From assembly GCA_046290225.1 (NCBI GenBank), contig JBKAGE010000082.1, positions 160,001 through 224,000 of the forward strand: 64,000 nt of DNA, in the 5' to 3' direction. Origin of the DNA: Bradymonadia bacterium (GTDB taxonomy: Bacteria > Myxococcota_A > Bradymonadia > UBA7976 > UBA1532). Under the pieces are notes generated by a model. The model searched no databases, was not told where the DNA came from, and was given only the letters and a program-made list of their open reading frames with translations. Below are positions 15,457-55,341 of the stretch, piece after piece. Within the stretch, counting starts at the first letter, position 1. Each line of letters opens with the position of its first letter. A program made the position numbers and the translations under genes.

Positions 15457-15457
15457 G

Positions 15458-17104: not shown

Positions 17105-18119
<1,015 letters not shown>

Positions 18120-18123
<4 letters not shown>

Positions 18124-35857: not shown

Positions 35858-36313
35858 ATGGGGTTGTTCAGCGACAATCGCCGTAAGCACGATCACATCG
35901 GTAACTTCAACTTCAAGGTCGAGATCGACGGCGTCACCGTCGGCGCTTTCCGTAACGTCGAAGGCCTCGACGCGGAGACCGAGGTGGTGGAGTACCAGGA
36001 CGGCGACGACCTGCGCCTGCGCAAGCGCCCTGGTCGTACCAAGTACTCCGACATCACCCTCAAGCGTGGCTACATCTCCACCATGGAGCTCTGGGACTGG
36101 CGTAAGCGGGTGATGGACGGCGTGGTGCAGCGCAAGTCCGGCTCCATCGTCCTGTGTAACGACAAGGGCGACGAGGTCATGCGCTACAACTTCTATGATG
36201 GATGGCCCTCCAAGTGGAAGGGCTTCACCCTCGACGGTAAGGGTACTGACGCTGTGGTCGAGGAGATCTCCATCAGCCACGAGTACCTCGAGCGCGTCCA
36301 GGGCAGCAACTGA
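35858..36313 (+). CDS. T4 gp19-like tail tube protein (major, Afp1-like)
   Basis: FNFKVEIDG, F..VEGL, EYQDG, PGR.KYSDITLKRG, WPSKW, VVEEI. Confidence 0.95.
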   Translation: MGLFSDNRRKHDHIGNFNFKVEIDGVTVGAFRNVEGLDAETEVVEYQDGDDLRLRKRPGRTKYSDITLKRGYISTMELWDWRKRVMDGVVQRKSGSIVLCNDKGDEVMRYNFYDGWPSKWKGFTLDGKGTDAVVEEISISHEYLERVQGSN

Positions 36314-36541
36314 TCACATTGATGATGAGTGTGCTCACGCACACTCACCAGCATTTGATCAGTCACCTCATGCGCGCAGTTGAGCGTGTGTGAGGGCACA
36401 TCTCGCGCCCGCCAGGACTTCACGGCCCTGGCGGGTGTTTTTACATCAGGGCCCGACCAGGGAGACGTGATTGTCCGAGGACACCACACCCCGGTCGCGT
36501 ACACTTTAATCCCCCTACCGGCGACACATCCGAGGGCTTAC

Positions 36542-36913
36542 ATGGCGTTCCAGACGGAGTTCCCGTTCACCCTGCCCAAGGGCTACGTGGATCAGGACGG
36601 CAACCTGCATCGCGAAGGCGTGATGCGACTGGCCACCGCAAAAGACGAAATCGCACCTTTGCAGGACTACCGAGTTCAGCAGAACCGTGCGTACCTGGTC
36701 ATCATCTTGCTGTCTCGAGTCATCATCAAGCTCGGCAGCTTGAAATCAGTGAGTCCCAACACCATCGAGGGCCTGTTCTCTTCAGATCTGGCCTACCTGC
36801 AGGAGTTCTACCGGCGGGTCAACGAAGATGGTGGCGCGAAGCTCGAGACCACCTGTCCCGCCTGTGGGCATAAGTACGAGCTGGATCTGGGCACTGACAT
36901 GGGGGAATCCTGA
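36542..36913 (+). CDS. Tail assembly chaperone-like protein
   Basis: TEFPFTLPKGYVD..G.LHREGVMRLATAKDEI, LLSRVI, DLAYLQEFYRRVN, C-terminal CPAC. Confidence 0.85.
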   Translation: MAFQTEFPFTLPKGYVDQDGNLHREGVMRLATAKDEIAPLQDYRVQQNRAYLVIILLSRVIIKLGSLKSVSPNTIEGLFSSDLAYLQEFYRRVNEDGGAKLETTCPACGHKYELDLGTDMGES

Positions 36914-37087: not shown

Positions 37088-38851
37088 ATGACCACAGTCC
37101 GCGCCCCCGGTGTTTACTACGAGCCCAGCGAGCAGCGTATTCCCCAGCTGAGCCTCGGGCGTACAGGTATGCCGGTGTTTCTCGGCGTCACCCGGCGGGG
37201 CCCGCTCGATCGGCCGGTCCGCATCACCAGCCTCAACCACTTTGAAGAGATCTTCGGAGAGCCCATCACCGATGGCTATCTGATCCCGTCGCTGACGGGC
37301 TTCTTCGACAATGGTGGTGACGAGTGCTACGTGCTCCGCATCGCCCGGGAGAAGGGCCGCCCGGGGGAAGATGTCGCCCTCACCTCGGAGATGGTGGCCC
37401 TCGATGGTGCGGGTTCAGAGGTCCTGCACATCGAGGCTCAGGATCCAGGCAGCTGGGGCAACCACCTGCGCATCACCCTGGCGCCCACACCTGATCCGCT
37501 GCGCACGTTTCTCACCCGAGACGGGGCGGCGGGTGATGCCACCCTGCAGGTGAAGACAACCCATGCCATGCAGGTGGGCACGCTCGTCGAGATCACTGAT
37601 GGTGAGTCGGCCCATTGGGCCCAGGTGAAAGACATCTCCGGCAAGATGCTCACGCTGAGCGAGGCCTTGCCCAAGGCATACAAGTCAGCGGCGCCGACCT
37701 ATGTGATCCCTCACACCTTCGATCTGCACGTGGCCGGCGCCTACGGTGAAGGGGCCGAGAGCTATACTCAGCTCTCGCTCCATGGCGCTTCGCTCCGCTT
37801 CGCCGAGCGGCTCATCAACAAGCAGAGTCGCCTCATCAAAATCCAGGTGATTCGCAACGGCTCGCCCTTGAGCCACAGCTTGCCCGTACCGGTGGCCCAT
37901 CAGCCCCTCGAAGGCGGCCAGGACGGTGTGGCCGATCTGGGCCCCGACGACTTCATCGGCTACGACCGGGGGCCACAGGCCCGCCGCGGCCTGTGGACTC
38001 TGGTGGAGCACCCGCAGATCGATCTGGTGGCGATCCCCGATCTCATGAGCGCCTACGAGCGCAGCGATCGCTTCAAGACCTTGCGCGACGTCGACGCCGT
38101 GCAAGAGGCGGCGATCACCCTCTGTGAAAATTCGCTCAACCGCTTCGCCATCCTCGATCTGCCCCCTGGGGGTGACTACGAAGAGGCGCTGCGCTGGCGA
38201 CGACAGTTCGACAGCCCGCACGCCGCCTTCTACTACCCCTGGGTGGTGGTCCTCGAAGGCGGTCGGCGACGGGCGGTGCCGCCTTCGGGTCACGTCGCCG
38301 GCATCTTCTCTCGGTGTGATCGCAACATCGGCATCCACAAGGCCCCGGCGAACGAGATCATCGAAGGTGTGGTCGATCTCGATGTTTTGCTGCAAGACGC
38401 CCACCTCGCTCTCTTGAACGAGGCAGGGGTGAACTGCCTCCGGGCCTTCGCCTCACGTGGCCTGCGGGTCTGGGGTGCGCGGACGGCGAGCAGCGAGGCG
38501 GAGTGGCGATACATCAGCGTCAGGCGCACGATGAGCGCCATCCACGCAGCCATCGATCAGGGGTGTCAGTGGGCGGTGTTCGAGCCTAACGGGCCGAGCC
38601 TGTGGAAACGACTTACCCGGCTGATCACGGGATTTCTCATGGACCTTCGAAGCCGGGGAATCCTTGCAGGGGAGCAGCCCGAAGAGGCTTTCTACGTGCG
38701 CTGTGACAACGAGACGAATCCCCCTGACGCCATCGACAACGGTATGTTGATCACCGAAATTGGTCTGGCCATCACTCGACCGGTGGAGTTCATCATTTTC
38801 CGACTCGCTCAGAGATTGGAAGATGAAGCACAGCAGTTGGAGGAGAGCTGA
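37088..38851 (+). CDS. Contractile tail sheath protein 2, with inserted domains
   Basis: APGVYYE, FFDNGG, PGSWGN, YYPW, VPPSGH, HKAPANE, VWGART, FEPN. Confidence 0.93.
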   Translation: MTTVRAPGVYYEPSEQRIPQLSLGRTGMPVFLGVTRRGPLDRPVRITSLNHFEEIFGEPITDGYLIPSLTGFFDNGGDECYVLRIAREKGRPGEDVALTSEMVALDGAGSEVLHIEAQDPGSWGNHLRITLAPTPDPLRTFLTRDGAAGDATLQVKTTHAMQVGTLVEITDGESAHWAQVKDISGKMLTLSEALPKAYKSAAPTYVIPHTFDLHVAGAYGEGAESYTQLSLHGASLRFAERLINKQSRLIKIQVIRNGSPLSHSLPVPVAHQPLEGGQDGVADLGPDDFIGYDRGPQARRGLWTLVEHPQIDLVAIPDLMSAYERSDRFKTLRDVDAVQEAAITLCENSLNRFAILDLPPGGDYEEALRWRRQFDSPHAAFYYPWVVVLEGGRRRAVPPSGHVAGIFSRCDRNIGIHKAPANEIIEGVVDLDVLLQDAHLALLNEAGVNCLRAFASRGLRVWGARTASSEAEWRYISVRRTMSAIHAAIDQGCQWAVFEPNGPSLWKRLTRLITGFLMDLRSRGILAGEQPEEAFYVRCDNETNPPDAIDNGMLITEIGLAITRPVEFIIFRLAQRLEDEAQQLEES

Positions 38852-38853: not shown

Positions 38854-39363
38854 ATGCGCAGAAGCAGGAGAAGTCGCGGCGGCAGCGGTGCTTCCGCTGG
38901 GAACAGCAGCGCGCCCACTCGAAACCCCGCCCTGGTCAGCGTTCAAAGCCGGCCCATGGGCAAGTTCCGCTTCAAGTTCGAGGTCGACGGCATCACCATG
39001 GCCCACTTTCAAAGCGTGACGGGGCTCGGCCACGAGATCGAGGTCCTCGAACAGCAAGAGGGCGGGGTCAACGAATACATGCACAAGCTCCCCGGCCAGG
39101 GGCGCTACTCCAACTTGGTGCTCAAGGTGGGCTGGGTCAGCACCCAGCTCGTCGAAGACTGGCACATGGGCTTCGCCCGCAACCCCAAAGGGGTTCAGCG
39201 CAAGACCGGCGCCCTCGTGCTCCTCGATGACGCGGGGCAAGAGGCAAAGCGCTGGGACTTCAAGGGCGCCTGGCCCGTGAAGTGGGAAGGCCCTGCCCCT
39301 GACACCAGCCAGAGCGCCATCGCGGTCGAGTCCATCGAGATCGCCTATGAGCAGCTGACCTGA
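38854..39363 (+). CDS. T4 gp19-like tail tube protein 2 (Afp5-like)
   Basis: FRFKFEVDG, FQSVTGL, EGG.N, KLPG, WPVKWEGP, AVESIEI; alternative start at MGKF. Confidence 0.92.
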   Translation: MRRSRRSRGGSGASAGNSSAPTRNPALVSVQSRPMGKFRFKFEVDGITMAHFQSVTGLGHEIEVLEQQEGGVNEYMHKLPGQGRYSNLVLKVGWVSTQLVEDWHMGFARNPKGVQRKTGALVLLDDAGQEAKRWDFKGAWPVKWEGPAPDTSQSAIAVESIEIAYEQLT

Positions 39364-39406: not shown

Positions 39407-42400
39407 ATGAGCGATTCTGGCATTGGGACGAGTGAAGGCACGTTGCGGGTCGGCGAGATTCTGCGCAGCCCCACGCCTGATCATGCCGACACCGGCCTGA
39501 TCTCGGCCATGACCGCCTTCTCGGGCGGCATCTCCACCCGACTCGAATCGTTCGGCATGGCCGCCGACACCGAGTCTGCGGGTGGCCTCGTGAATGATCT
39601 CGCCTCGCGCTGGGCTCTGCCCTCGGGCGCAGCCGCCTTCGAGGTCGTCGACGCTGACAGCTTCGACGACCTGCTGGTGGACTGGTCGGTCTCTGTAGAT
39701 GGCTACACCGATCTCATCTACGATCTGCCCCACTCCATCTATGTTGTCCCTGTCGATCCCGTAGAAGAGCCCACTGGCTTCCCGGCCCGCTCGGTGATGC
39801 CCCGCCGCACCGCAGCCCCGCGGCCTCAGCCGCCCCGTGGCGCCCTGGAGGCGGTAAAGGTGGCAGGCCGACGGCCCACCCCCTCGGCCCCTCGAGTGGT
39901 GAAGGAGCGCTGGAGAGCTACGGATGAAGCGGCCCCTGAGGGCCTGCTGAGCCCCTACCCTGCAGCCATGGGTCAGGCAGGTGCCATCGACAGCGCGCTG
40001 CTCCGCTTCCCCGATGCCCGGGCCGAGGTGCGTCAGGGCCAGCGACGGGCGGTGATCGTCGACAATGGGCCCAGCCCCCTCGCAGGTGCCGGGTGGTCTC
40101 CTCGAGCCTCCGGGACAGCACCAGCAGTGCGGGCAGCAGAGATGATCGCCGAGCGCAGCGCTCAGTTCGACCAGCTACAAACCCTCACGCCCCCCGCGGC
40201 GGCGGTGGGCTTCTGGCTGGTGGAGCCTGATGGCCCCACCACCCCAGGCGGCATCGAGCGGATGGCCACTGATCTGGCGGCAGAGCCCACAACCCGCGTG
40301 AGCGAGCTGGCCTATGACGCCCCGGTGATGACGGCTGTGCGCCCTCGAGCACCGATGGCGCAACAACACACCACGCGCCACCCTGGGCAATGGCAACGGA
40401 TCGGTGAGCGCGCAGTGACGCCGCTCCTCACCCGCCGCCCGCCCATCTCTGTACAGCCTGCTTCAGTGCAGCTTGCTTCAGGGCAATCCGCTTCAGGGCT
40501 GCCCGCCTCAGGGCTGCCCGCCTCAGTGCAGCAGGGCCCCTCTGCCACTGCGCCCGCTCAGGCCGGGCTTGCCGCTCAGCGCCCAACACTGAGCCCTGTG
40601 CTGCCACCGAGCCCCACGGCGCGTATGGGGCTGCCCGCCGATACACACAACGTCTCGGCTTCAGTACCCAGCACAGCAGTGAGTGCTGTGCCCCGGCTCA
40701 ACCCTGTGGCGCCGGCAGCGCTCTCTGCACCGCACCGGACATCTCCCATAGGCGCCAGGCGCGGTACCGCGATCAGTGATCGCATCGCCCCGCTCACCCG
40801 TCGGCCGTCCATGCCCGTCCGCCCGACGATGTCTTCCGCTGTGGCTCTGAGCGAGTCCGCCCTCGCAGCCCCTCAGGCATCGACCCCCTGGTGGTCCGAA
40901 GGCTGGCACGAGGCGCTCTCTGAAGAGCTGGTCAGCCCTCGGGCTGTCTCAGCGCCACAGGCTGCAGTCACACCAACTACAGTCACACCGGCCACAGCCT
41001 CTGCCATGGCCCCCCAGGCTCCACCGAGCGCCTCCACGAGCCCCTTGCAGCCGGTTCTTCAGCCAGCCCCCATGGCCGCCTCGGCGCTCAGTTCGATGAC
41101 GCGGAGCGCCTTTGTGCCCCGAGGGCTCAGCGGCGCGACGACCACGCGGCCTTCGATGCTGCCCATGGCCTCGGCAGAGCGCACCGCAGCATTCGCGCAG
41201 CCAGCAGCACGACGAGCAGTTGGCCAACCAGCTCACCTGAGCGCTGCGCCTCTCTCCCGCCTCACTTCACGGGGCGATACAGGCGTCTCTGAACTGTGGA
41301 CCGAGGCCCCGACGCCTGAGTTCTACCGTGCCCCCGCGTCGGCATCCCCGGCCTCTGCGGTGCAACACACCAACTCGACGTCGACCCCTGTGGCCCGACG
41401 TGCCTCAATGGCTCAAGCCACCGCTTCGCAACCTGGCACCTCGCAGCACAGCGCAGTCCGCCAGCAGGCCTTGACCGTAGCGAGCCAGCGCCCCATCTCG
41501 CGTAGCGCCGACAGAGGGCGTAAGGTTGCCGTATCGAGTTCGACGCCGGCAGTGACACCGAGCCTGACCTCGATCCGCGCCGTTGCCTCTGCAGCACATC
41601 GCGGTGAGTTCGTGCCTCAGCAGGCCCTTCAAGCCCAACAGCTTGCCGCCCTCGTAGAAGGGCAGGCCCTCGGCGGTCAGGTGGGCAGGCCCGCTTCGAG
41701 CCCCTGGCAGCGCCCAGGGTACGCACGGGCTGAGGGCACTCTGATCCGGGCAACGTCTGTGACCGGGCCTCAAGAGGCACACGCCATCACCCAGGCGCAT
41801 GCAGGCAACACCGGTCGTACGGTGATGCCCAGCCAGACTGTGGGCACACGCAACCCGACCATCAGCTCAGCGGCCGACGCTGTGGCCGTCCGTACTGCAG
41901 CCCCCTTCATGCCCGCCTCACTGGCAGCGACGACACCGGCAGGGGGCAGCACCTCTGAGGCGACTCTGCCGGGGCGAGCTCGACAATCTATGGGGATGAT
42001 CTCCATCGACCCGTCGACCACCAGCGCTCCGATGGGGACCGCAGTCCAGATGCCCGAGATCTTCCGCGGCCTGGGCAGCGTGCACCAGCAACGCTTGGAG
42101 ACGTTCCTCGCCCAAGTGGGGCTCGCACCCATGCGCGAGGAGGCCAACCTCTCATTGGGTCAGGTGGCTGAGATCACTGAGGGCCTGCATCTGAGCGACG
42201 ACATGCTCGGTGGAGGCACTGGCGAGCTGGTTCAGCCCATCGCCGAAGCCACCACCGACCCCTCGGAGCCAGGGGCGGCCCAACCTCAGCAGCGCAGAGC
42301 GCGTCAACGCACAGAAGCCGCCACCCAAACAGCGGTCACCCGAGCCACTGAGCGCCTCAGCGCCACCATCGCGGCCCACACCGCTCAGCTTGCCGCCAGC

Positions 42401-44056
42401 GCTCAAGGCACCGCATGGGACCGTGCCGCAGTGGCGAGCCAGCCTTCTACGGCCCTCGCGCGGCTCGAGGCCAGCCTGCGTCAGAGCACAGGTGCATCTC
42501 AAGGGGCGTGGTTGTCGCGCATCGTCACCCTCACCCGGCGTCTGTCGGTGATGGGCCTGAGCCCGAAACAAGCGGCCCCGATGGTGAGCAGCCAGCTGGC
42601 CCTGAGCCCGGCCCTGAACGCCGGGCTGCCCACGGCGATCACCGAGCTGGTGCAGCACGTGGCCCAAGCAAACGCAGCTGGCATGTCTGCACCTCGAGAT
42701 CGCGCCCTCGACGCGCTGCCTGCCGCCCTGCAGCGGCTCGTGCGCGAGGTCGAGACCCCCAGCTCTGGTCTGGCCTTCGACGCCCCCTCCACCGAGCTGG
42801 TGCAGGGTGAGCGCGACACATCAACGCCTCTCGGGGTGACCTCTGCGAGCGCCGAAGCCGGGCCAGCGGCGTCCAAGGCCGCCACCCGTACGCTCCAAGC
42901 GCTCAGCGCCATCGAGCGGACCATGGCCCGCCAAGCTCGACGGACAATCAGCCCCCCTGTCGCCCGGGCCATCGCCGGGGGCGAGGGCAGAGGGGCCGAC
43001 AGCACGGTGGGTCGAGTGGCTGCGCTGCTCGGTGAGGCCTTTGGCACCACAGGCGACGTCGCCGGCGAGGTGGTCGCTCAACGTGCGCCTCGCGACCCCC
43101 TGACGACGCGCACAAGCACCACCAGCGCAGGCGCTGCCTCCACTCGAGCGACTGTCCGCGCCAGCAAGGGCAGCAGTGACCCCCTCGTGCTCGACCTGTC
43201 CCAGCTCGGCGGAGCAGGCGCCATCGGCAGCCGCTCGGCGAGCTTCGCCCCGAGCCACAGCGATGCACTCAGTGATGTCGCCCCTGGCAAGCTCGGGGAT
43301 CGCGTCGACAGCTTCAGTGGCTTCTCACCCGCCTTTGCCGCCAGCCCTGGCGCCCTGCTCCGTGGCAGCACCCCCGGTGAGTCCACCTTCCTGCACGCGC
43401 AGAGCCTCGTGGAGCAGAAGAGCAGAAGCATCGCCGGTGAGACCATGGTGGGTGAGGCCAACCTCGAGCGCGCCCTCGTGGTGTACGAGCAGGCCCAAGC
43501 CGCACAAGGCAACGTCACCACCCCCGTGCCCCACGCGCCGAGCCCCACTCGCGGCGCCCCTGGCGCCCTGGCTCAAATCTTCGGCGGTGACGCCGGCAGC
43601 AGCAGCGGCTTCGCCGGCCAGCTGCCCGCAGCCCTCTCGGGCAACAGCGTCAGCTTCAGCGGGAGCGGTTCGAGCAAGGACGCCCCCGCCTTCACCGAGC
43701 TGCCCGGGGGCCTCAACATGCCCCCAGTTTTGCTCGGCGGCCTCTTTGGTGATCGAGGCCCCAGCATCGGCAGCGGTGATCCCGCCATGCCCCCGGCGCC
43801 CCCGTCGCGGATCATGGTGGACACCGGACACGCATCTCAACCTTCACCGGAGTCTGTCCTTCGGTCCACCCCCGGCGAGCGGCCCAACAGCAAGGCCGAG
43901 ACCAGCGAAGAGTCCCGGCACCGGCTCGCCCGGAACCAAGTGGATGATCAGCTCAGCGACGAAGAGGTCGACAAGATCGCCGAGCAGGTCATCTACACGC
44001 TCAAGCGCGAGGTGGAGATGGACAACACGCGTTATGGAGACGACGAATGGGACTGA
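39407..44056 (+). CDS. 1549-aa low-complexity Ala/Ser/Pro/Thr-rich CIS protein in the tape-measure-like slot
   Basis: Uninterrupted ORF between tube 2 and the LysM gene; C-terminal EVDKIAEQVIYTLKREVEMDNTRYG resembles the short helix ending CIS proteins at this position. Confidence 0.65.
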   Translation: MSDSGIGTSEGTLRVGEILRSPTPDHADTGLISAMTAFSGGISTRLESFGMAADTESAGGLVNDLASRWALPSGAAAFEVVDADSFDDLLVDWSVSVDGYTDLIYDLPHSIYVVPVDPVEEPTGFPARSVMPRRTAAPRPQPPRGALEAVKVAGRRPTPSAPRVVKERWRATDEAAPEGLLSPYPAAMGQAGAIDSALLRFPDARAEVRQGQRRAVIVDNGPSPLAGAGWSPRASGTAPAVRAAEMIAERSAQFDQLQTLTPPAAAVGFWLVEPDGPTTPGGIERMATDLAAEPTTRVSELAYDAPVMTAVRPRAPMAQQHTTRHPGQWQRIGERAVTPLLTRRPPISVQPASVQLASGQSASGLPASGLPASVQQGPSATAPAQAGLAAQRPTLSPVLPPSPTARMGLPADTHNVSASVPSTAVSAVPRLNPVAPAALSAPHRTSPIGARRGTAISDRIAPLTRRPSMPVRPTMSSAVALSESALAAPQASTPWWSEGWHEALSEELVSPRAVSAPQAAVTPTTVTPATASAMAPQAPPSASTSPLQPVLQPAPMAASALSSMTRSAFVPRGLSGATTTRPSMLPMASAERTAAFAQPAARRAVGQPAHLSAAPLSRLTSRGDTGVSELWTEAPTPEFYRAPASASPASAVQHTNSTSTPVARRASMAQATASQPGTSQHSAVRQQALTVASQRPISRSADRGRKVAVSSSTPAVTPSLTSIRAVASAAHRGEFVPQQALQAQQLAALVEGQALGGQVGRPASSPWQRPGYARAEGTLIRATSVTGPQEAHAITQAHAGNTGRTVMPSQTVGTRNPTISSAADAVAVRTAAPFMPASLAATTPAGGSTSEATLPGRARQSMGMISIDPSTTSAPMGTAVQMPEIFRGLGSVHQQRLETFLAQVGLAPMREEANLSLGQVAEITEGLHLSDDMLGGGTGELVQPIAEATTDPSEPGAAQPQQRRARQRTEAATQTAVTRATERLSATIAAHTAQLAASAQGTAWDRAAVASQPSTALARLEASLRQSTGASQGAWLSRIVTLTRRLSVMGLSPKQAAPMVSSQLALSPALNAGLPTAITELVQHVAQANAAGMSAPRDRALDALPAALQRLVREVETPSSGLAFDAPSTELVQGERDTSTPLGVTSASAEAGPAASKAATRTLQALSAIERTMARQARRTISPPVARAIAGGEGRGADSTVGRVAALLGEAFGTTGDVAGEVVAQRAPRDPLTTRTSTTSAGAASTRATVRASKGSSDPLVLDLSQLGGAGAIGSRSASFAPSHSDALSDVAPGKLGDRVDSFSGFSPAFAASPGALLRGSTPGESTFLHAQSLVEQKSRSIAGETMVGEANLERALVVYEQAQAAQGNVTTPVPHAPSPTRGAPGALAQIFGGDAGSSSGFAGQLPAALSGNSVSFSGSGSSKDAPAFTELPGGLNMPPVLLGGLFGDRGPSIGSGDPAMPPAPPSRIMVDTGHASQPSPESVLRSTPGERPNSKAETSEESRHRLARNQVDDQLSDEEVDKIAEQVIYTLKREVEMDNTRYGDDEWD
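40454..40531 (+). repeat. Imperfect 15-bp coding tandem repeat (QPASV/QLASG/QSASG/LPASG/LPASV)
   Basis: gcttcag/gcctcag recurring at a 15-nt period. Confidence 0.65.
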
Positions 44057-44715
44057 TCAAGCAGGCGATCCAGAGCATGGTCCCCGGGACCAACAAGCTC
44101 AGCATCACCCCCCTCGACGGGCGGCGGGCGCTCCAGCCTGTGGAGGCCCTGTTCAACCCCAAAGAGTACAGCATCCAGAAGAGCGTGCCCTGGAACCCCC
44201 AGGCCGCCGCGGGTCTCGACGCCCCCGACATGCAGTTCACCACCGGTCAGGGCGAGACTTTGAGCCTCGAGCTGTTCTTCGACACCTATGAGAAGGGGTC
44301 GAACGTCAAGGCCCACACCGACGCGCTGCACAACCTCGCCCTCATCGACCCCACCTTGCACCGGCCGCCGCTGGTCATGGCCTCGTGGGGCAAGCTGAGG
44401 TTCCAGGGTGTCATCGAGTCGATCAGCCACCGGTTCACCATGTTCCTCGAAGACGGCACCCCCGTGCGGGCCACCTGCACCGTGAGCCTGCGGGAAGCCC
44501 GCACCGCCACCCAGCAGAACCAGGAGGCCCCTCGGGAGAGCCCTGATCACGCCAAGCTGCACGCCGTGCGTCGTGGCGAGACGCTGCAGGCCATCGCCGC
44601 CGAGGAATACGAAGATCCGTCCGAGTGGCGGCGCATCGCCGACGCCAACGGCATCGATGATCCGCTGCGCCTCGAGCCCGGCACCAAGCTGATCATCCCG
44701 CCGATCCTGAGCTGA
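44047..44715 (+). CDS. CIS tube-initiator with C-terminal LysM (Afp7-like)
   Basis: FNPKEYS, LSLELFFD, RPP....WG, G.PVRA, LysM GETLQAIA...WRRIADANGIDDP. Confidence 0.9.
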   Translation: MGLIKQAIQSMVPGTNKLSITPLDGRRALQPVEALFNPKEYSIQKSVPWNPQAAAGLDAPDMQFTTGQGETLSLELFFDTYEKGSNVKAHTDALHNLALIDPTLHRPPLVMASWGKLRFQGVIESISHRFTMFLEDGTPVRATCTVSLREARTATQQNQEAPRESPDHAKLHAVRRGETLQAIAAEEYEDPSEWRRIADANGIDDPLRLEPGTKLIIPPILS

Positions 44716-44776: not shown

Positions 44777-45871
44777 ATGGAAACCTCGAACCGGGTCCCC
44801 GACTATAAAATCAAGGTCAACGGCTCCGAGCTGCCACAGGAAGATCGGGTCAACGTGCAGGAGATCTTCGTCGATCTCAGGCGACAGGCCCCGGCCAGCG
44901 TGGAGATTCAGCTCAACAACCACGAAGGCACCTACGACGAGCGGGAAGATCTCGCCCCCGGTGCCCAGATCAGCGTGGAGCTCGGCTATCAGGACGACAG
45001 CACCACTCAGGTCTTCGAGGGCGAGATCATCGGCACTCAGGTGAAGGCCAAGCAGAACGGCCCGCGGGTCTTCTTGATCCGGGCCTTCGACTACAGCCAC
45101 CGCCTGACCCGAGGGCGCAAGCAGCGCAACTTCAACAGCCAGAAGTTCAGCGATCTCGTCACCACCCTCGCCCAAGAGGTGGGCCTCACCCCCGACGTGG
45201 AAGACACCCAGTTCAACCGCGAGTACGTGGCCCAGCACAACCAGACCAACCTCGACTTTGTGCGGGGCATGGCCGGCTGGCTCGACTTCGACCTGTGCAT
45301 TCGGCACCTCGAAGATCCGAAGAAGCTGCGGTTCAAGCCACCAGAGCTCTCCGCCGCCGAGGCGGTGACGGTGGTCTACGAGAACCCCAACCTGCAGAAC
45401 AACGAGCTGCACCTGAAGAAGTTCGATGGTCGGCAGTCCCTCGCCCGCGTGGTGAGCCACGTCACCGTCCGAGGCTGGAACCCCGGGGGCAAGGCCGCCT
45501 ACATCGGCCGCGCGGGGCCCGACAAGCTCTACGACGAAATGTCGGGCGATTCTTCGGCGGTGCAGATGGTGCTCGACAAGTGGGGCGAGACCGAGCGGCA
45601 GATCGTCGACTGCAAGGTCTTCAGTCAGGAAGAGGCCGACAAGATCGCCGAGTGCAAGCTCAACGAGTACGCCCGCACCTTCATACGCGTCGACATGGAA
45701 GTGCAGGGCAGCACGCTCCCCTACCCCGGCTGCACCGTGAAGGCAGAGCGGGTGGGCCCGCGGTACGACGGCAAGTACTTCGTCGACTCGGTCCACCACA
45801 TCTTCACCTCGAAGGTGGGGGCCAGCCACGGCTACACCACCCGCTTCATCGCCAGCCGCTGCGCCTGGTGA
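44777..45871 (+). CDS. Phage late-control gene D / gp27-like baseplate hub, without gp5 spike domain
   Basis: VELGY, FEGEI, HRLTRGRK, QHNQTNLDF, VTVRGW, G.Y.GKYFV..V.H, YTTRF; ends at 364 aa. Confidence 0.88.
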   Translation: METSNRVPDYKIKVNGSELPQEDRVNVQEIFVDLRRQAPASVEIQLNNHEGTYDEREDLAPGAQISVELGYQDDSTTQVFEGEIIGTQVKAKQNGPRVFLIRAFDYSHRLTRGRKQRNFNSQKFSDLVTTLAQEVGLTPDVEDTQFNREYVAQHNQTNLDFVRGMAGWLDFDLCIRHLEDPKKLRFKPPELSAAEAVTVVYENPNLQNNELHLKKFDGRQSLARVVSHVTVRGWNPGGKAAYIGRAGPDKLYDEMSGDSSAVQMVLDKWGETERQIVDCKVFSQEEADKIAECKLNEYARTFIRVDMEVQGSTLPYPGCTVKAERVGPRYDGKYFVDSVHHIFTSKVGASHGYTTRFIASRCAW

Positions 45872-45909
45872 TCGGGCAACAGTGAGGCTCGAGCCGGGAG
45901 GGGCCCATC

Positions 45910-46566
45910 ATGGATGAGTCGAAGCTCGTCGACTGGTACGACATCATCGAGGCCATCGCCAATGGCCGCCTCGACGGTCACACCTGCCCGAATTGCGGCC
46001 ACCAGGGCCTTGAGATCAGCCACGAGAACTATCAGATGAGCGCCCGGTGCCCGAACTGCAACGAGGGGTTCTCTGGTCGTGGCGGTGGCCGGGACGACGC
46101 TTATGATCGGGAGGCCGCCGAGTTGATGGCGCGGCAGTCTCGGCGGCGGCAACCTTCGGTCACGGGACGCACCGTCGGCGTCACCGATCCCAACCTGTGC
46201 CCTCCGGTCCCTGGCGATGGCACCGTGAGCCCCGGGCTCGCGGCCATCCCCGCCCGCCCCTCGGCCCCGAGCCGACCCCCGCCGGTGAGGGCCAACGCCA
46301 CCCTCTACGAAGATCCGCCGGGCACCAAAAAACCCGAGCGCCGCGGAGAGCCCTGGGCGTGGCAGCTGCCCCACCAGGGGGGCGAACCCGACCCGGACGC
46401 GCTGGCCCTGTGGATGCCCCTCGTGGAGTCGATTCACAACGGCAGGCGCACGGGATTAACCTGCCCCTTCTGTAGCGAGCCGCTGCATGATATCCATCAT
46501 CAGCCACCCCACCTGCGCATCGTCTGTCGCCAGTGCGGCGAAGCCTTCGAGGGCAGGATCGGGTGA
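45910..46566 (+). CDS. Uncharacterised protein with two homologous CxxC...CxxC Zn-ribbon-like domains
   Basis: Internal duplication W....E.I.NGR..G.TCP.C...C..C.E.F.GR.G separated by a Pro-rich linker; GGAGG RBS. Confidence 0.75.
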   Translation: MDESKLVDWYDIIEAIANGRLDGHTCPNCGHQGLEISHENYQMSARCPNCNEGFSGRGGGRDDAYDREAAELMARQSRRRQPSVTGRTVGVTDPNLCPPVPGDGTVSPGLAAIPARPSAPSRPPPVRANATLYEDPPGTKKPERRGEPWAWQLPHQGGEPDPDALALWMPLVESIHNGRRTGLTCPFCSEPLHDIHHQPPHLRIVCRQCGEAFEGRIG

Positions 46567-46674
46567 GCCCGAGGGCTGCTCGCGCATGCAGCCCGAGAGG
46601 GCGCTGGCGTACTGGGTGCGAGCGCCCTGGGCGCCGTGCGGCAGTGAACATCACATCGTGAGGGTGATCATCCC

Positions 46675-47082
46675 GTGAGCACAGATCGGAGCTTCCTCGG
46701 CCGCGGCATCGCTTTTCCCATGAAGATCGATGGCGCCGGCGGACTCGCCCTCTCTTCCTACGAAGAGAACATCGAAGAGTGCATCCGCATCATCCTCGGC
46801 ACCGCCCCTGGCGAGCGGGTCTACCGCCTCGACTTCGGCTGCCGCATCCATGATCTGCTCTTCGCCCCGAACAACGCCAACACGCGCAACCTCGCCTCGT
46901 TCTATGTGAGAGAGGCCCTCATGAAGTGGGAGCCCCGCATCCGGGACATCGAGGTCGAGGCCGGGGCCGATCCGCTCAAGCCCAACACGCTGCGCATCGA
47001 GATCAGCTACGCCGTTCGGGCCACGAACTCCCACTACAACCTGGTTTACCCCTTCTACCTGCGTCGCGAGGATGACCTATGA
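46675..47082 (+). CDS. GPW/gp25 baseplate protein (Afp9-like)
   Basis: FLGRGIAFP, I.IILGTAPGERV...FGC, WEPRI, NLVYPFYL. Confidence 0.95.
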   Translation: MSTDRSFLGRGIAFPMKIDGAGGLALSSYEENIEECIRIILGTAPGERVYRLDFGCRIHDLLFAPNNANTRNLASFYVREALMKWEPRIRDIEVEAGADPLKPNTLRIEISYAVRATNSHYNLVYPFYLRREDDL

Positions 47083-50000
47083 TCCCGATCCCCAACCTTG
47101 ATGATCGCACCCACCGGGAGATCGTCGAGGAGGCGTTGAAGCTGATCCCGCAGTATTGCCCCGAGTGGACCAACTTCAACCCGTCTGATCCGGGCATCAC
47201 CCTCATCGAGCTGTTCGCCTGGATGACCGAGATGGCCATCTATCGGCTCAACAAGGTCACCGACAAGAACTTCATCGCCTTCCTCAACCTGATGGGGGTG
47301 AGGCTGCAGGCGCCGCAGCCGGCCCACGCGCTACTGCAGTTCCAGCTCGTGAAGGGCGGCCCGCCCACGTGGATCAGGCAGGGCTTCCAGATCAGCACTG
47401 TGCCCGACGGCAAGGACGATCCGGTCATCTTCGAGGTGGAGAGCGATCTGCTCGTCAGCGACAACACCCTCGAGAAGGTCTTCACCCAGGTGAGCGACCT
47501 CTACGAGGACCAGACCCCCTTCATCGACGGCCGCCGTCGCGAGGGCTTCGAGGTCTTCGGGGGTCACAACCACATCGAGCGCAGCCTCTACCTCGGTGAT
47601 CTGCGCTTCGAGCAGCTCAACGAAGACGCCACCCTCATCATCAAGATCGACAGCCCGGCGAACCACGCCCTCGTCGATCAGCTCGAGTGGGAGTATTGGA
47701 ACGGCCGCCGCTGGCGTGAGCTGAGCCGCTCCCTGAGCGAGACTGAGGAGGGCGCCATCGCCTTCGAGGACATCGATCAGATCGAAGCCACCGACGTGAA
47801 CGGCGTCGGCGTGCCCTGGATCCGAGGCCGCCTGATCGACACCCCTCAGAACACTGATCAGACCCTCATCGAGACCGTCGTCGCCCGCATCGAGCTCAGC
47901 GGCGAGGGCCTCAAGCCCGAGAAGGCCTATGTGGCCCACGTACACGACAACAGCACCGTGTACATCACCGTGGACGACAGCCGCACCTGGGCCCCCTTCG
48001 GCAAAGAGCCCAAGACCGAGCACACCCTCTACCTGATGCCTGGGGCCTTCCCCCAGGAGCCGGGCTCGGTGATCCGCCTCGAGGTGCAGCTCGCCGACCG
48101 CAAGACCCACGACGCCCCGGAGCCCAGCGATGATCTCAGCCTGCGCTGGGAGTACTGGAACGGCAAGAAGTGGGCCCCGCTGTGCCTGAAAGCCACCCCC
48201 GAGGGCGCCGAGAGCGCCGTCGACGTCGACTTTGTCGACGGCACCGAGGCCTTCACCCACTCCGGGGAGATCAAGTTCAAGCGCCCCGCCGATCTCGCCA
48301 GCACCGACGTGCAGGGCGAAGAGGGCACCTGGATCCGCGTACGCATCGAGGCCGGCGACTACGGCGAGGCCGGGCAGTACGAGCTCGACGGCGACCGCTG
48401 GCTCTGGCGCAACGAGCGCCCCCTGCGGCCCCCGTGGGTGAAGCAGATGGTGTTCCGGTACACCGAGCGCGATCGGTTCGTCGATCATGTGCTCACCTAC
48501 AACGACTTCGCCTACTTCGACCACTCGATGACCGCCCGGACCCCCCTCAAGGTGTTCCAAGCCTTCGAGCCCTCAGTAGAAGACAGCCCCACGCTCTATC
48601 TGGGCTTCAAGCAGGCCATGCCCAACGAGCCTGGGCAGATCTACTTCCAGATGACCGAGAACACTGCGGTACAGCGCGATCGCCGCCACGCGGAGTATCT
48701 CTCGCAGTACTACGCCGAGCGCGATCAGGTCCTCGACGCCGAGCAGCGGGTCATCTGGGAGTACTGGAACGGCCTGGAGTGGGTGAGCCTGAGCGCTGAA
48801 GACGGCACCCGGGCCTTCACCGAGAGCGGGTTCCTGCAGTTCGTGGGCCCCGAAGACTGGAAGCGCAGCAAGCGCTTCGGCGAAGCTCTGTGCTGGCTGA
48901 GGGCTCGCCTCGAGATGGGGGGTTATCACCAGATGCCCCGCATCAGCCACGTGCTGCTCAACACCGTGAGCGCCAAGAACCACCTGAGCTTGAAGAACGA
49001 GGTCCTCGGCGCCAGCGACGGCACCCCCAACCAGACCTTCAAGTTCGCCCAGGGTCCCGTGCTCGAAGGTCAGGAGATCCGGGTCCGCGAGAAAGAGCTG
49101 CCCGACGGCCCCGAGAAAGACGCCCTGATGAAGCAGGGCGAAGATGTGGTCGAGCCCGCAGGCAAGAGCGGCTTCTGGGTGAAGTGGACCGAGGTGGAGA
49201 GCTTCTACGACAGCACCGGTCGTAGCCGGCACTACATCATCAACCGCACCGACGGCACCGTGCAGTTCGGCGACGGCAACAAGGGCATGATCCCGCCCTC
49301 GGGGAACGCCAACGTCGTGGCCCGACGCTACCGCATCGGCGGCGGCGTGCGGGGCAATGTCACCGCCCAGACCGTCACCGCCATGCGCCAGAGCCTCCCG
49401 TACATCGAGGCGGTGGGTAACCCCTTCCCCGCCGCCGGAGGCAGCGACCAGGAGACCGTCGAAGAGGCCAAGGCCCGCGGGCCTCACCTCATCAAGAGCC
49501 GGAACCGCGCCGTCACCGCCGAAGACTTCGAGTGGCTCACCCTGCAGGCCTCGAACGGCGTCGCCCGGGCCAAGTGCCTCACCACCATCGGCCGTGAGGG
49601 CGAGATCACCATCGTGGTGGTGCCCAAGCAGGACGAGCGGGATCGCGATCTCAAGGTGAAGCTCAGCCCCAGCGCCGAGCTGTTGCGCCGGGTGAAGAAC
49701 TACATCGACGAGCGGCGCCTGCTCACCACCGTGGTCAAAATCTCGCCGCCGAAGTACGTCGAGGTGAGCGTCAAGATCGAGGTGATCCGCAAGGTGGCCA
49801 GCGGCGACAAGCAGCTCAAGAACGCCATCGAGCAGCGGCTGCGTACGTTCCTGCACCCCCTCGTGGGCAGCCGGAGTGGCGGTGGGTGGCCTTTTGGGCG
49901 CAACGTGCTCAAGCTCGACCTGTATCACGTCATCGAAGACATCCCCGGGGTCGATCTCGTCGATCGCATCCGGCTCTTCGACGAAGACCGCCGCGAAGAG

Positions 50001-50087
50001 GTGGAGCAGATCAAGGTGGCCGCCAACCAGCTCGTGCACCTCGTCGACGTCACCGTGGTCGAGAAGCCCCGTGAAGAGTTCCTGTGA
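47079..50087 (+). CDS. Baseplate J-like wedge protein (Afp11-like)
   Basis: PNLDDR, PEWT.FN.SDPGITLIELFAW, LGASDG.PNQ.F, FGDG..G.IPP, RAVTAEDFE, GWPFGR. Confidence 0.93.
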   Translation: MIPIPNLDDRTHREIVEEALKLIPQYCPEWTNFNPSDPGITLIELFAWMTEMAIYRLNKVTDKNFIAFLNLMGVRLQAPQPAHALLQFQLVKGGPPTWIRQGFQISTVPDGKDDPVIFEVESDLLVSDNTLEKVFTQVSDLYEDQTPFIDGRRREGFEVFGGHNHIERSLYLGDLRFEQLNEDATLIIKIDSPANHALVDQLEWEYWNGRRWRELSRSLSETEEGAIAFEDIDQIEATDVNGVGVPWIRGRLIDTPQNTDQTLIETVVARIELSGEGLKPEKAYVAHVHDNSTVYITVDDSRTWAPFGKEPKTEHTLYLMPGAFPQEPGSVIRLEVQLADRKTHDAPEPSDDLSLRWEYWNGKKWAPLCLKATPEGAESAVDVDFVDGTEAFTHSGEIKFKRPADLASTDVQGEEGTWIRVRIEAGDYGEAGQYELDGDRWLWRNERPLRPPWVKQMVFRYTERDRFVDHVLTYNDFAYFDHSMTARTPLKVFQAFEPSVEDSPTLYLGFKQAMPNEPGQIYFQMTENTAVQRDRRHAEYLSQYYAERDQVLDAEQRVIWEYWNGLEWVSLSAEDGTRAFTESGFLQFVGPEDWKRSKRFGEALCWLRARLEMGGYHQMPRISHVLLNTVSAKNHLSLKNEVLGASDGTPNQTFKFAQGPVLEGQEIRVREKELPDGPEKDALMKQGEDVVEPAGKSGFWVKWTEVESFYDSTGRSRHYIINRTDGTVQFGDGNKGMIPPSGNANVVARRYRIGGGVRGNVTAQTVTAMRQSLPYIEAVGNPFPAAGGSDQETVEEAKARGPHLIKSRNRAVTAEDFEWLTLQASNGVARAKCLTTIGREGEITIVVVPKQDERDRDLKVKLSPSAELLRRVKNYIDERRLLTTVVKISPPKYVEVSVKIEVIRKVASGDKQLKNAIEQRLRTFLHPLVGSRSGGGWPFGRNVLKLDLYHVIEDIPGVDLVDRIRLFDEDRREEVEQIKVAANQLVHLVDVTVVEKPREEFL

Positions 50088-50155: not shown

Positions 50156-51130
50156 GTGGCTGATCCGCGACCGAGAGAGCGACAGACAGTCCGTATGCCC
50201 GAGGTGGTGGGCATCATGCTGGAGAACGCCCAGCTGATGCTCACCAACGAGCACTTCGATCTGCGCCGGGTGAAGCTGCGGTACGAAGAGGCCTATCGCC
50301 CCGAAGACGAGGTGCTCAAGCAGCACCCGCAGCCCGGGGCCGTGGTGGCCACCGACGAGCCCGTAGAACTGGTCGTCAGCCGCCGCAGCCTGGTGAACCA
50401 CCTGCCTCAGGTCTATCAGAAGTCCGACAGCACCGGTCGGCACATGCTCAGAGATTTTCTGTGGGTCTTCGACCACATCTATGCCGATCTCGAGCGTACC
50501 CTCAACGGCCTGCACCGGTACTTCGACCCCCTCGAAGCCCCTGGAGAGTTTCTCCCCTGGCTGGCGAGCTGGGTGGCCCTCACCATCAACCAGGGCTGGG
50601 ACGACGCCAAGAAGCGCAAGCTGATCCGCGAGGCCATCGGCATCTACGGCTACCGGGGCACCGTGCGGGGCCTCAAGCTCTTCTTGTCGATCTTTACCGA
50701 CGTCGAGCCCGACATCCACGAGAACAAGTGGCCCTACAAGGGCTTCCGCGTCGGCAAGGTGAGGGTGGGCGTCGACTCGGTGGTGATCCCTCAGGTGAAC
50801 CTGTCCCACTGCTTCATGGTGGAGATCCCCGCCGAATATCGGCACGTCGACGACAACGAGATCATCAAGATCCACGACATCATTCGCATGGAGAAGCCCT
50901 CCCACACCGCCTACTGCCTGACCTTCAAGGCCGCCCCCAAGGAAGATCTGCTGCAGCCCTTCCGCATCGGCGTCGGCCGCCTGGGCCTTCGGGAGTCCGG
51001 GGTCATGGGCAGCCGCCCGAGCGAAGCGGTCATGGAGGCCTTCCAGGAGAGAGACACCCTCGGCGAGGGTGCTACCAGCGAGCCAGCGACCGGCGACTCC
51101 TCGGGAGATGCCGAAGACACAACGGAGTGA
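50156..51130 (+). CDS. P2 gpI-like tail/baseplate protein with N-terminal PASTA domain
   Basis: aa 12-75 VRMPEVVG..LENA...L...EVLKQHPQPGAVV....VELVVS (PASTA); then LPQVY, FDP..AP.EFLPWLASW, YRGTVRGL, EKPSHT. Confidence 0.82.
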   Translation: MADPRPRERQTVRMPEVVGIMLENAQLMLTNEHFDLRRVKLRYEEAYRPEDEVLKQHPQPGAVVATDEPVELVVSRRSLVNHLPQVYQKSDSTGRHMLRDFLWVFDHIYADLERTLNGLHRYFDPLEAPGEFLPWLASWVALTINQGWDDAKKRKLIREAIGIYGYRGTVRGLKLFLSIFTDVEPDIHENKWPYKGFRVGKVRVGVDSVVIPQVNLSHCFMVEIPAEYRHVDDNEIIKIHDIIRMEKPSHTAYCLTFKAAPKEDLLQPFRIGVGRLGLRESGVMGSRPSEAVMEAFQERDTLGEGATSEPATGDSSGDAEDTTE

Positions 51131-51133: not shown

Positions 51134-52696
51134 ATGGGGTCCGGTGAGAGCTTTAAGCGCATCAACTTCTTCAAGGGCTTCCTGGCCACCGAAGAAGACT
51201 TCAACGATGCCGAGAAATACCACCTCGAGAAGCGGCACCTGCACAACCAGGCCTTTCACGCCCCTGGCGTCGTTGCGCACCACGGCGACGGCCTGAGGGT
51301 CACCAGCCGCGGTCGCGGTGATCTCTCCATCGAGATCGGTGCTGGCTATGCCATCGATGGCTTCGGTCGGGACATCTACGTGCCCGACAAGCAGATCAAG
51401 ACCATCAGCGCCGGTGACTTCAAGCTGCCCCAGACCATCTATGTGGTGGTGAAGTACCTCGAGGAGATGACCGACTTCATCCGGTACAAGGAAGTGCCCG
51501 ACTACCAGGGTCACCGCCGGATCCAGGAAGGCTTCAAGGTCGAGTTCACCAACGTCGAGCCCGACGTGAACCACGAGATCGAGCTCGCCCGCATCTACCT
51601 CGAAAAGGGCGCCAAGCGGATCATCGACGCCAAGGATCCGAACAAGCCCGAGGCCAACGAGATCGATCTGCGCTTCGTGCGCTACGCCGGCACCGTGGGC
51701 ATGTTCTTGAACAGCACGATCAGGGTCCGCCTGCGCGAGGCCATCGCGTTCCAGAAGCGGGTGTTCTCACACCTCTCCCGGGTGAAGAAGATCATCAGCG
51801 CCCAAGACGCCTTCCACGCGCTGATCACCCTGGACATGCTCACGCTCACGGCCCACATCGGCCACGACAACATCTGGGAGCTGCTCATCGAGCTCGCCAA
51901 GCTCGAGTGGGACGTGGTGAACGAGGCCGAGAGCCGGGTGCCCGATCTGAGCGCCCGCCGCGAGTTCACCAGTTTCAAGAAGAACATCGAGATCATGTAC
52001 AACTTCGCCGCGGAGAAGCGGCGGACCGACGAAGGCCTCGACAACGTCATCACCTACATGATGAAGACCTGCGAGAGCATCGAGATGCTGCTCGACCAGA
52101 TGCGCTCTTCGGAGATCGAGGTGAAGGCCATGGCCGACGCCCCGCAGGAGAGCAAGATCACCGAGTACATCGAGGGCGGCATCACCTTCGAGGAGCTCAA
52201 GGTCTACTCCAAAGAGTTCACCGAGAGCCTCATCGTCGACGGTCGCGAGTGGGTGCTTGTGGACATGATCGACATCCGCGACGAGCAGAACGAGAACGAT
52301 CACGAGTTCCGCATCAAAGAGGCCAAGGACACGTACCGCAGCCGCCAGAAGCTGCGGTACCCCGACGGCACCGTCGTCGAAGACCAGGGCATCGCCCACG
52401 AGGGCGGCTACTCAGAGTTCAAGGTCAAGAACGTCACTCCCCACCAGGATCTGGTCATGATCCGCCGCATGGATTACGTGCGGGCCGACTACCAGGCCGA
52501 GATTCAGGTGAACGGCGCCCGTATGGACCGGATCATGGACTGCGCCGGGGCCGACAAGAAGTTCCGGTGGCGCAACTGGCCCTACGTGATCCCCGCCCAG
52601 CACATCAGCTCCACGGTGATCAGCATCAAGCAGGTGATGCTCACCGCCGACCGGGACATCAACATGTTCCACTACTGGTTCTACCAGCCCAAGTGA
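51134..52696 (+). CDS. CIS baseplate-periphery / fibre-slot protein with uncharacterised C-terminal domains
   Basis: N-terminal RINFFKG.L....DF....YH......N......GVV..GL.V...GYAIDGFGRDI, typical of CIS fibre-attachment N-domains; remainder helical plus beta domain. Confidence 0.7.
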   Translation: MGSGESFKRINFFKGFLATEEDFNDAEKYHLEKRHLHNQAFHAPGVVAHHGDGLRVTSRGRGDLSIEIGAGYAIDGFGRDIYVPDKQIKTISAGDFKLPQTIYVVVKYLEEMTDFIRYKEVPDYQGHRRIQEGFKVEFTNVEPDVNHEIELARIYLEKGAKRIIDAKDPNKPEANEIDLRFVRYAGTVGMFLNSTIRVRLREAIAFQKRVFSHLSRVKKIISAQDAFHALITLDMLTLTAHIGHDNIWELLIELAKLEWDVVNEAESRVPDLSARREFTSFKKNIEIMYNFAAEKRRTDEGLDNVITYMMKTCESIEMLLDQMRSSEIEVKAMADAPQESKITEYIEGGITFEELKVYSKEFTESLIVDGREWVLVDMIDIRDEQNENDHEFRIKEAKDTYRSRQKLRYPDGTVVEDQGIAHEGGYSEFKVKNVTPHQDLVMIRRMDYVRADYQAEIQVNGARMDRIMDCAGADKKFRWRNWPYVIPAQHISSTVISIKQVMLTADRDINMFHYWFYQPK

Positions 52697-52836: not shown

Positions 52837-53619
52837 ATGATGTTCCGTGATCCACGCAAAGTCGTCCAAGATCGGATCAACATGCGGATCCAGAACGCCC
52901 AGATGCGGGCCAAGTCCCAAGTGCGTGGCGCTGGAGTCCGTGTCATCAGCGCAGGTGAGCGCAAGGCAAAGCAGGCCACCGACAACGCCAAAGCGAAAGC
53001 CAAAGGCAAAGGCCAAAAAGCCGCCCCAAACCAGGCGCCTCAGCAGGCGACTGCAGAAAAGAAGAAGTTCAGTTTGTGGCCCTTCGGTAAGAACAAGCAA
53101 GACGCAGCTGGCCAGGCGCCCGCCTGCCACAGCTGTGGCCAGGCCATCGACCCTTCATGGGAGCTGTGCCCTTACTGCGGCACCAGCCTCGCCGAGGCCC
53201 CGGCCCCTCAAGCGCAAATGCAGGCAGCCCCCGTACCGGGTGCGCCGGTCCCTGCCATGCCCCAGATGACCGGGAACAAGACCCAGGCCATCAACCTCGA
53301 CGAGCTCGCCGGTCCCCAGAAGATGGTGGTGGGCTGGCTGGTCATCATGGAGGGCAACGAGAAGGGCCGTGACTTCAGGCTCTACGAGGGCCAGAACAGC
53401 ATCGGCGCCGCCGCTGACTGCAACATCGTGGTCAACGACGAGTACCTCTCGGCTCACCACGCCAGCATCCGATTCGACGATGGGCGCTACGAGTTGATCG
53501 ACAAAGACTCCACCAACGGGTGCTTCCTCAACGAGAAGCGCATCTCCCGCGAGGAGCTCGTCGACAACGACACCATCCGGCTGGGACGCACCCATCTCCG
53601 CTTCAAGGCGATCTATTGA
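52837..53619 (+). CDS. Zinc-ribbon + FHA domain protein
   Basis: CHSC...CPYCG; GWLV...G..GRDFRL, SAHHA, DSTNG, IRLG. Confidence 0.88.
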   Translation: MMFRDPRKVVQDRINMRIQNAQMRAKSQVRGAGVRVISAGERKAKQATDNAKAKAKGKGQKAAPNQAPQQATAEKKKFSLWPFGKNKQDAAGQAPACHSCGQAIDPSWELCPYCGTSLAEAPAPQAQMQAAPVPGAPVPAMPQMTGNKTQAINLDELAGPQKMVVGWLVIMEGNEKGRDFRLYEGQNSIGAAADCNIVVNDEYLSAHHASIRFDDGRYELIDKDSTNGCFLNEKRISREELVDNDTIRLGRTHLRFKAIY

Positions 53620-53683
53620 GCCTTGCACCTGACGAGGCATCCCGCCTCACGACCCCCTGACACACCGTGACGAGATCCCACTG

Positions 53684-55246: not shown

Positions 55247-55341
55247 CCCCTCCGCCGCTCAAGATTGCAGTCATATAAGCCCATCTTCTAGGATGAGCCT
55301 CGGATCGGGGGGGACCTCGAAGGGCTCAAGGAGGAGCGTAC

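Follow-up and report, generated by a model that had tools for sequence, protein, structure and literature searches.

Where does a contractile injection system (CIS) obtain its spike when the gene cluster that encodes it holds none? The question is posed by a 64,000-nucleotide stretch of a Bradymonadia genome (G000:C82:160001-224000, here called the window; G, C, L and f precede our labels for genomes, contigs, loci and families), in which the gene for a stand-alone gp27-like hub is followed by one for a zinc-ribbon protein of 218 amino acids (aa) and then by gp25. An earlier note on this DNA had described a hub that ends at 364 aa without a spike domain, gaps of 38 and 108 bp around the zinc-ribbon gene, and a zinc-ribbon protein made of two homologous units joined by a Pro-rich linker; it had offered two explanations, that the zinc-ribbon protein replaces the spike or its tip, or that spikes are supplied in trans. 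The description proved correct on every point, and the second explanation is supported, since three remote PF04717 genes match the half that the hub is missing; the first did not survive comparison with relatives, in which zinc ribbon, spike and PAAR coexist. The source genome measures 8.58 Mb and is 99.38% complete, comparisons cover a class sample of 113 genomes and a phylum sample of 401 Myxococcota genomes, and all support is genomic and computational.

The absence of a spike half from the hub is evident from both Pfam and model coverage. The Phage_GPD match spans residues 61-345, and of the 547 positions in the VgrG_rel model the protein covers 5-349 alone; Phage_base_V finds no match in it, and OB-fold and beta-helix are absent. 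No gene for a gp5 OB-fold plus beta-helix spike occurs in the cluster either, and whole-genome searches for spike and PAAR families, of the kind that the earlier note had proposed, return three PF04717 genes, all on another contig (G000:C64:34624-43497), and no free PAAR. The products, here called spikes A, B and C (Table 1), match VgrG_rel at 367-538, 374-529 and 376-530, which is the half absent from the hub. Hub and gp25 are each present in one copy in the whole genome, and no PF05943 match to the sheath TssC/VipB of a type VI secretion system (T6SS) was found in it by a search that gave the expected match in Escherichia coli. With one hub, one gp25 and no VipB, no contractile machine other than the CIS of the window was found to which the C64 spikes could belong, and we are highly confident that the C64 module serves it. 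A T6SS as owner of the module was considered and rejected on the same grounds (no VipB, no second hub, no second gp25). The orphan module occupies C64:33977-44379 (L008:978-11380), its first gene being conserved, 211 aa long and without a family; between the end of the module and that of the contig there are 286 bases.

The same trio recurs in relatives. At least three PF04717 matches are present in 15/15 genomes with the double zinc ribbon and in 20/20 hub-positive genomes of the family. The order A-B-DUF2169-C is contiguous in 11 relatives (G001, G003, G004, G005, G007, G008, G009, G011, G015, G101 and G105), two of these runs reaching contig ends; three further genomes (G002, G006 and G012) keep A, B and DUF2169 together with C elsewhere, and G104 has A, B and C on three contigs. 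In G006, spike A and the hub each extend over more than one reading frame (L067:6965-7925 and L014:8848-9920), which may reflect assembly error or decay. A quick tree of 69 rows places A in a clade with a Shimodaira-Hasegawa-like approximate likelihood-ratio (SH-aLRT) support of 93 and C in one of 96, with the B rows split off at 98, and spike identity is about 50% inside each class and about 35% across classes. The spike parts measure 323-360 aa in A, B and C, compared with 238-263 aa in single-spike relatives. Judged by their sequences, A, B and C are three conserved paralogue classes. No effector domain was found in A or B. Genome G002 carries a single A and a single B but four copies of C, and these are identical over 637-948 aa while their last 130 residues are 18-20% identical, which reads as a polymorphic-toxin pattern.

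What sets C apart begins directly after its last beta-strand, with a region of 210-260 aa in which two His and one Cys, candidate zinc ligands, are invariant in 12/12 sequences and whose middle segment forms a hydrophobic helix in most members. Across the 401 genomes, a profile of this PAAR-like region finds the fused form in 15/18 family genomes and three weak matches in the other 383, one of them a stand-alone PF05488 protein of 129 aa (E 1e-13) whose gene comes immediately after a VgrG in G362, and another an N-terminal domain of an Rhs protein. The N half of the C region aligns with residues 3-70 of the G362 PAAR (94% probability, E 2e-7) and the C half with residues 105-129 (62%, E 7e-5), the middle staying unaligned, so that homology to a free PAAR is colinear, with both halves in order. 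PF04717 is carried by 14/15 long homologues of the region, and in the Atlas it lies near PAAR_motif/prePAAR clusters at 0.88, which is a lead only. A free PAAR was found in the source genome by none of PF05488, PF13665 and a sister-family PAAR profile, and the free PAAR profile is matched in 0/28 family genomes versus 64/66 genomes outside the class. Several results pull the other way: the AlphaFold2 model of the region is unusable, with a mean predicted local distance difference test score (pLDDT) of 35; the C region of the source genome has no Pfam match, and PF05488 appears in only 2/12 relatives, below cut-off; under the sister-family PAAR profile only 6/12 sequences beat the best of 600 shuffles, with hhalign at 30%; and a PDB profile search gave no match. 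It is nevertheless very likely that the domain after the beta-helix of C folds as a PAAR cone.

Beyond the tip, C has YD repeats, an Rhs-associated core, a variable C-terminus and a downstream gene, which are the features of an Rhs polymorphic toxin. Its tail and the next gene are likely a toxin and its immunity protein, and the probable immunity function of the latter points to bacterial targets. A colicin-E3-like nuclease was considered for the tail because of a resemblance and dropped for want of Pfam, NCBIfam or PDB support. DUF1795 (Eag) was found in none of the six module genes, to which that search was confined; the neighbour is DUF2169.

How might three spike chains and one tip make a needle? 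Spikes of the gp5/VgrG kind are trimers with one PAAR cap, and gp27 receives gp5 non-covalently. Because C carries the tip covalently and the searches gave no free PAAR, a one-tip spike needs one C and two tip-less chains, and A and B, present once per module and of similar length, would fill the two tip-less positions. A stoichiometry of 1:1:1 is reasonably probable, because a trimeric spike has room for one PAAR and a C homotrimer would bear three tips. The hub trimer would then receive the separately made spike non-covalently. DUF2169 would shield the tip of chain C, a role that we rate as fairly probable by analogy with DUF2169 as chaperone of PIPY tips (PMC11883445). At firing, the hydrophobic insert may help the RHS-caged toxin through a membrane, as a membrane-crossing role has been proposed for the hydrophobic insert of split-PAAR effectors (PMC7773334). 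Taken whole, the reading of a hub without spike, a remote A:B:C heterotrimer with one tip-RHS-toxin on C, and a zinc-ribbon protein as gp25 or wedge accessory is probable, with clear room for doubt.

That doubt has identifiable sources. Two genomes, G106 and G111, show only A and B, their third match being an ordinary VgrG-sized frame. The spike tree was quick and made without bootstrap, does not draw B as a single clade, and includes one frameshifted long-branch row; the aligned chains are unequal in length (A 323-327, B 328-354, C 351-360), and the genomes counted are related and hence not independent samples. From the literature, the apparent requirement for VgrG heterotrimers in Aeromonas was traced to effectors and not to the trimer (PMC8668125), and DUF2169 is rarely near PAAR genes (PMC11883445, section 4).

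The alternative that survives best is that A, B and C form alternative homotrimers or random mixtures, like interchangeable VgrG paralogues, with only the C-containing particles armed. For T6SS it is well documented that VgrG paralogues can serve as alternatives (PMC8668125), the chain ends of A, B and C differ, and one genome spreads the three across three contigs. However, no free PAAR was found that could cap A or B homotrimers, each module keeps a single copy of the effector-less A and B whereas the extra copies in G002 are all of C, and a C homotrimer would presumably bear three tips and three RHS cages. We regard this alternative as unlikely.

If the spike comes from elsewhere, the protein in its place between hub and gp25 requires an explanation of its own. 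The first and last 60 residues of the 218-aa protein align at a score of 109, whereas the best of 2000 shuffles scores 52, and both units carry CxxC-x16/17-CxxC; Pro makes up 16/69 residues (23%) of the linker (residues 80-148), and both stretches quoted by the earlier note are present. AlphaFold2, run on a 14-sequence alignment, predicts two independent units of a helix plus three strands with a disordered linker (predicted template modelling score 0.31; ribbon blocks at pLDDT 85-94). Pfam and PHROGs searches with 58 zinc-ribbon units give generic ribbons only, in the Pfam case among the 25 of 60 families listed, and the Atlas neighbours are unnamed Myxococcota clusters. Foldseek gives no match at E<=0.001, and the best Z in a VIA fold search is 3.6; PAAR and gp5.4 are without a row among the listed Foldseek and VIA matches, which alone does not exclude that fold.

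Distribution ties the protein to CIS. The initial homologue search gave 14 proteins including the query, and 15 of the 19 loci returned are true, the remaining four being short generic ribbon matches without CIS genes. In the class sample, the hub is present in 46 genomes and the unit profile in 44, every one of them hub-positive; the double unit is confined to the family of the window, and sister families have a single unit of about 62 aa. In the phylum sample, with the CIS13-like gene of the window (Table 1) as marker of the CIS subtype, the zinc ribbon occurs in 96/401 genomes, all within the 102 marker genomes and in 0/299 others, so that homologues prove not to lie mostly outside CIS loci. 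Its neighbourhood is as consistent: among 68 zinc-ribbon loci in 63 genomes, gp25 is the next same-strand gene in 61/63 genomes, at an estimated gap of <=30 bases in 55/66 loci. Of the exceptional loci, one is cut off where its contig stops, and only that of G244 genuinely departs from the rule. Hub and zinc ribbon are parted by unrelated DNA downstream of the hub in 10/30 hub loci, and two more stop at contig ends. The protein is a conserved companion of baseplate genes and likely a wedge or gp25 accessory or an assembly factor rather than a tip; whether it binds gp25 or the wedge during assembly, as gene linkage alone suggests, we judge to be evenly balanced. Speaking against such a partner is the zinc-ribbon gene of G244 (L212:7295-7555), which lies away from gp25, the CIS marker being on a different contig.

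Relatives show how the zinc ribbon and the spike go together. Each of the 26/26 hub-positive sister-family genomes has exactly one spike gene, which in 25 of them sits on a different contig and in G065 at a distance of 213 kb, and 23/26 have a PF05488 match, those read being free proteins of about 105 aa. Beyond the class, a spike gene is present in 65 of the 66 zinc-ribbon carriers (exactly one in 57) and an ordinary PAAR in 64; in the single-contig genome G372 the zinc ribbon lies at 0.75 Mb, the PAAR at 5.77 Mb and the spike at 7.11 Mb. Four genomes (G221, G325, G329 and G361) have the order hub-gpV-gpV-zinc ribbon-gp25, with spikes in cis. Family f44 has two cis spike genes, one often with a long low-complexity extension, and at least one orphan, giving 3-5 per genome (L218:3244-7772, L219:6546-11958, L220:6577-10667 and L263; L256-L262); together these are possibly a second, independent mixed spike.

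Three other roles for the zinc-ribbon protein may be weighed on these data. As a docking adaptor or plug between hub and spike, its duplication would match an asymmetric spike, it comes after the hub in the window and in many relatives, the double unit is found only in the family with the A/B/C trio, and the hub lacks a fused spike in all carriers examined in detail; yet in broken clusters it keeps with gp25 and not with the hub (the 10/30 loci above), and f44 has at least three spike genes and one unit. The rule of one zinc-ribbon unit per spike type, tried separately, fails on that same family. We hold a docking adaptor to be improbable. A regulator, either a late activator like P2 Ogr or P4 Delta or an RNA-polymerase factor like Elf1, is still more doubtful. 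Its site after gpU- and gpD-like genes is like that of P2 ogr and its tandem duplication like that of P4 Delta, and Elf1 is both the best PDB sequence match (E 0.001, with the order of helix and ribbon swapped) and the best Foldseek row (E 0.07); these Elf1 matches are weak and generic, however, Ogr_Delta is absent among the 25 of 60 Pfam families listed, and 0/58 units are basic (median isoelectric point 4.8), all being acidic or neutral, which argues against DNA binding. The units do share with Elf1-type C4 zinc ribbons a CxxC...CxxC ribbon packed against an acidic helix, and differ in having the helix before the ribbon and in being found, in the genomes searched, only in CIS-bearing Myxococcota. 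The likeness of the unit helix is to the C-terminal helix of fungal Elf1, although it stands ahead of the ribbon, which may reflect circular permutation or convergence. Finally, that the protein is a non-canonical tip or spike substitute, as its position between hub and gp25 and the lack of a detected free PAAR in the source genome might suggest, is extremely improbable given that relatives keep both spike and PAAR, that cis spike genes stand beside it in four genomes, and that a helix joined to a zinc ribbon is predicted as its fold; the data thus lend no support to a needle that lacks a spike and ends in a zinc ribbon.

The CIS cluster spans 33632-56529 of the window, from Pvc16 through FHA/PEGA accessories, and includes sheath, tube, hub, gp25, gp6/gp7 baseplate and terminator genes, as in extracellular CIS (eCIS); the TIGR02243 baseplate and the TIGR02242 domain both score above cut-off.

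Table 1. Genes and domains of the CIS cluster (window positions) and of the remote spike module (positions on contig C64)
Feature	Position	Strand	Family or basis
Pvc16-like terminator	33632..34249	+	PF14065
Sheath 1	34338..35498	+	PF04984/PF17482
Tube 1 (gp19)	35858..36313	+	PF06841
Small conserved protein, single C-terminal CxxC, true start probably near 36542	36380..36913	+	71-88% identity among relatives
Sheath 2	37088..38851	+	PF04984/PF17482
Tube 2 (gp19)	38854..39363	+	PF06841
1549-aa low-complexity Ala/Pro/Ser-rich protein between tube and tube initiator	39407..44056	+	conservation confined to both ends
Tube initiator with LysM	44047..44715	+	PF19266 + PF01476
Stand-alone gp27-like hub	44777..45871	+	Phage_GPD; sole hub of genome
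Double zinc-ribbon gene, entire, 218 aa	45910..46566	+	profile and locus comparison
Zinc-ribbon unit 1 (acidic helix + C4 ribbon)	45910..46089	+	alignment, AlphaFold2
Zinc-ribbon unit 2	46384..46566	+	alignment, AlphaFold2
gp25, sole copy in genome	46675..47082	+	PF04965
Baseplate J / gp6-like	47079..50087	+	PF04865, TIGR02243
gp7/P2-I-like wedge protein, N-terminal PASTA domain (50156-50380)	50156..51130	+	
CIS13-like fibre/baseplate protein	51134..52696	+	NF053767, below cut-off
Two zinc-ribbon/FHA proteins (one with VWA) and TPR-PEGA protein	52837..56529	+	synteny kept in relatives
Spike A, 343 aa	C64:34624-35655		PF04717
Spike B, 362 aa	C64:35666-36754		PF04717
DUF2169 gene	C64:36761-37987		
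Spike C, 1837 aa	C64:37984-43497		spike, split PAAR-like domain, DUF6531, YD repeats, Rhs core, variable tail
Candidate immunity gene, 292 aa	directly after spike C		no family

Two further products of the cluster invite assignment by position. The small conserved protein after tube 1 matched no Pfam family and is likely a tail-assembly chaperone; a short open reading frame (36828-36983) overlaps the 3' end of this 177-aa gene in a different frame, which we take to recall the frameshift chaperone pairs of phage tails. The 1549-aa protein has no match in Pfam or NCBIfam, and a tape-measure-like role for it is a guess. From the PASTA domain of the wedge protein and the FHA, VWA and TPR-PEGA genes one may suspect contact with peptidoglycan and control by phosphorylation. 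Outside the cluster, two WHD-AAA ATPase genes of the Pvc15 type (Walker-A, 724-745 aa), candidates for the AAA ATPase of an eCIS, lie at C78:353697-355934 and C4:16981-19155, and a third WHD match, of 297 aa, at C74:47110-48003. Elsewhere in the window, a DUF4175/TPR-peptidase/MoxR/DUF58/BatA cluster occupies 12328-21163, and a 1200-aa thrombospondin-repeat propeller protein (56529-60131) follows directly 3' of the CIS genes. In many sister genomes of families f4, f8 and f9 the CIS13-like gene occurs again at an unlinked site.

Several known systems can be compared with the locus. It resembles eCIS of the VgrG_rel/TIGR02243/TIGR02242 type (Streptomyces-like CIS, CIS12/CIS13 models) in its Pvc16, sheaths, gp19 tubes, tube initiator-LysM, gp25, TIGR02243 and TIGR02242; it differs in that VgrG is split into hub and spike genes at separate sites, that the PAAR and candidate WHD-AAA ATPase genes also lie outside the cluster, and that it has an extra zinc-ribbon gene before gp25 and PASTA, FHA and PEGA accessories. 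With the T6SS orphan islands of vgrG, chaperone, PAAR, Rhs and immunity genes that include DUF2169 (PMC11883445), it shares a remote spike, DUF2169, a tip, an Rhs effector and a small downstream gene; here, in contrast, the hub half is missing from the spikes, the genome yielded no T6SS sheath gene, and one chain carries the tip covalently, as a PAAR-like domain in which His/His/Cys are conserved and no DUF4150/PIPY was detected. By analogy, the system would work as an eCIS whose weapons come from an orphan island in T6SS style; it is neither a T6SS, given that no VipB was found, nor of the usual eCIS layout, with the spike gene in the cluster. The prePAAR split-PAAR Rhs effectors (PMC7773334) likewise have a PAAR broken by a hydrophobic helical segment and followed by Rhs and a variable tail, but there the insertion follows the first 16 residues and here about 65, with an N-terminal spike fused and an adjacent DUF2169 instead of Eag/DUF1795. 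The heterotrimeric VgrG spikes of Vibrio cholerae and Aeromonas (PMC8668125) also need several paralogues jointly, some with C-terminal extensions; those are full VgrGs with a separate PAAR, whereas here there are three fixed hub-less classes and a covalent tip. A literature search, with subscription papers and supplements largely outside its coverage, returned no description of this subtype or of a spike-PAAR-Rhs fusion in CIS, and the passages searched of PMC8651086 and PMC11582642 hold nothing on spike-PAAR fusion.

The subtype is present in about a quarter of the sampled Myxococcota genomes (96 to 102 of 401). With spike and tip encoded at such a distance from the other CIS genes, loci of this kind may be mistaken for defective ones, and cluster-based surveys would score them as incomplete. 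The zinc-ribbon protein is a compact marker of this Myxococcota subtype and, as far as sequence goes, a candidate baseplate factor of no named family. On balance we lean, if only slightly, toward the fuller picture: an obligate three-gene heterotrimer in an uncultured Myxococcota family, in which two blank chains would accompany one with tip, membrane-crossing hairpin, RHS cage and toxin and in which re-arming would take a new C gene only, within a phylum-wide subtype whose spike, tip and ATPase genes are scattered and whose zinc-ribbon baseplate factor had no name before. If the heterotrimer is true, nature would offer in it a clear example of a gp5 spike that is asymmetric and bears its tip-effector covalently; the mounting of one effector on a trimer would become directly testable, and the 3:1 mismatch between spike and tip would have been solved genetically.

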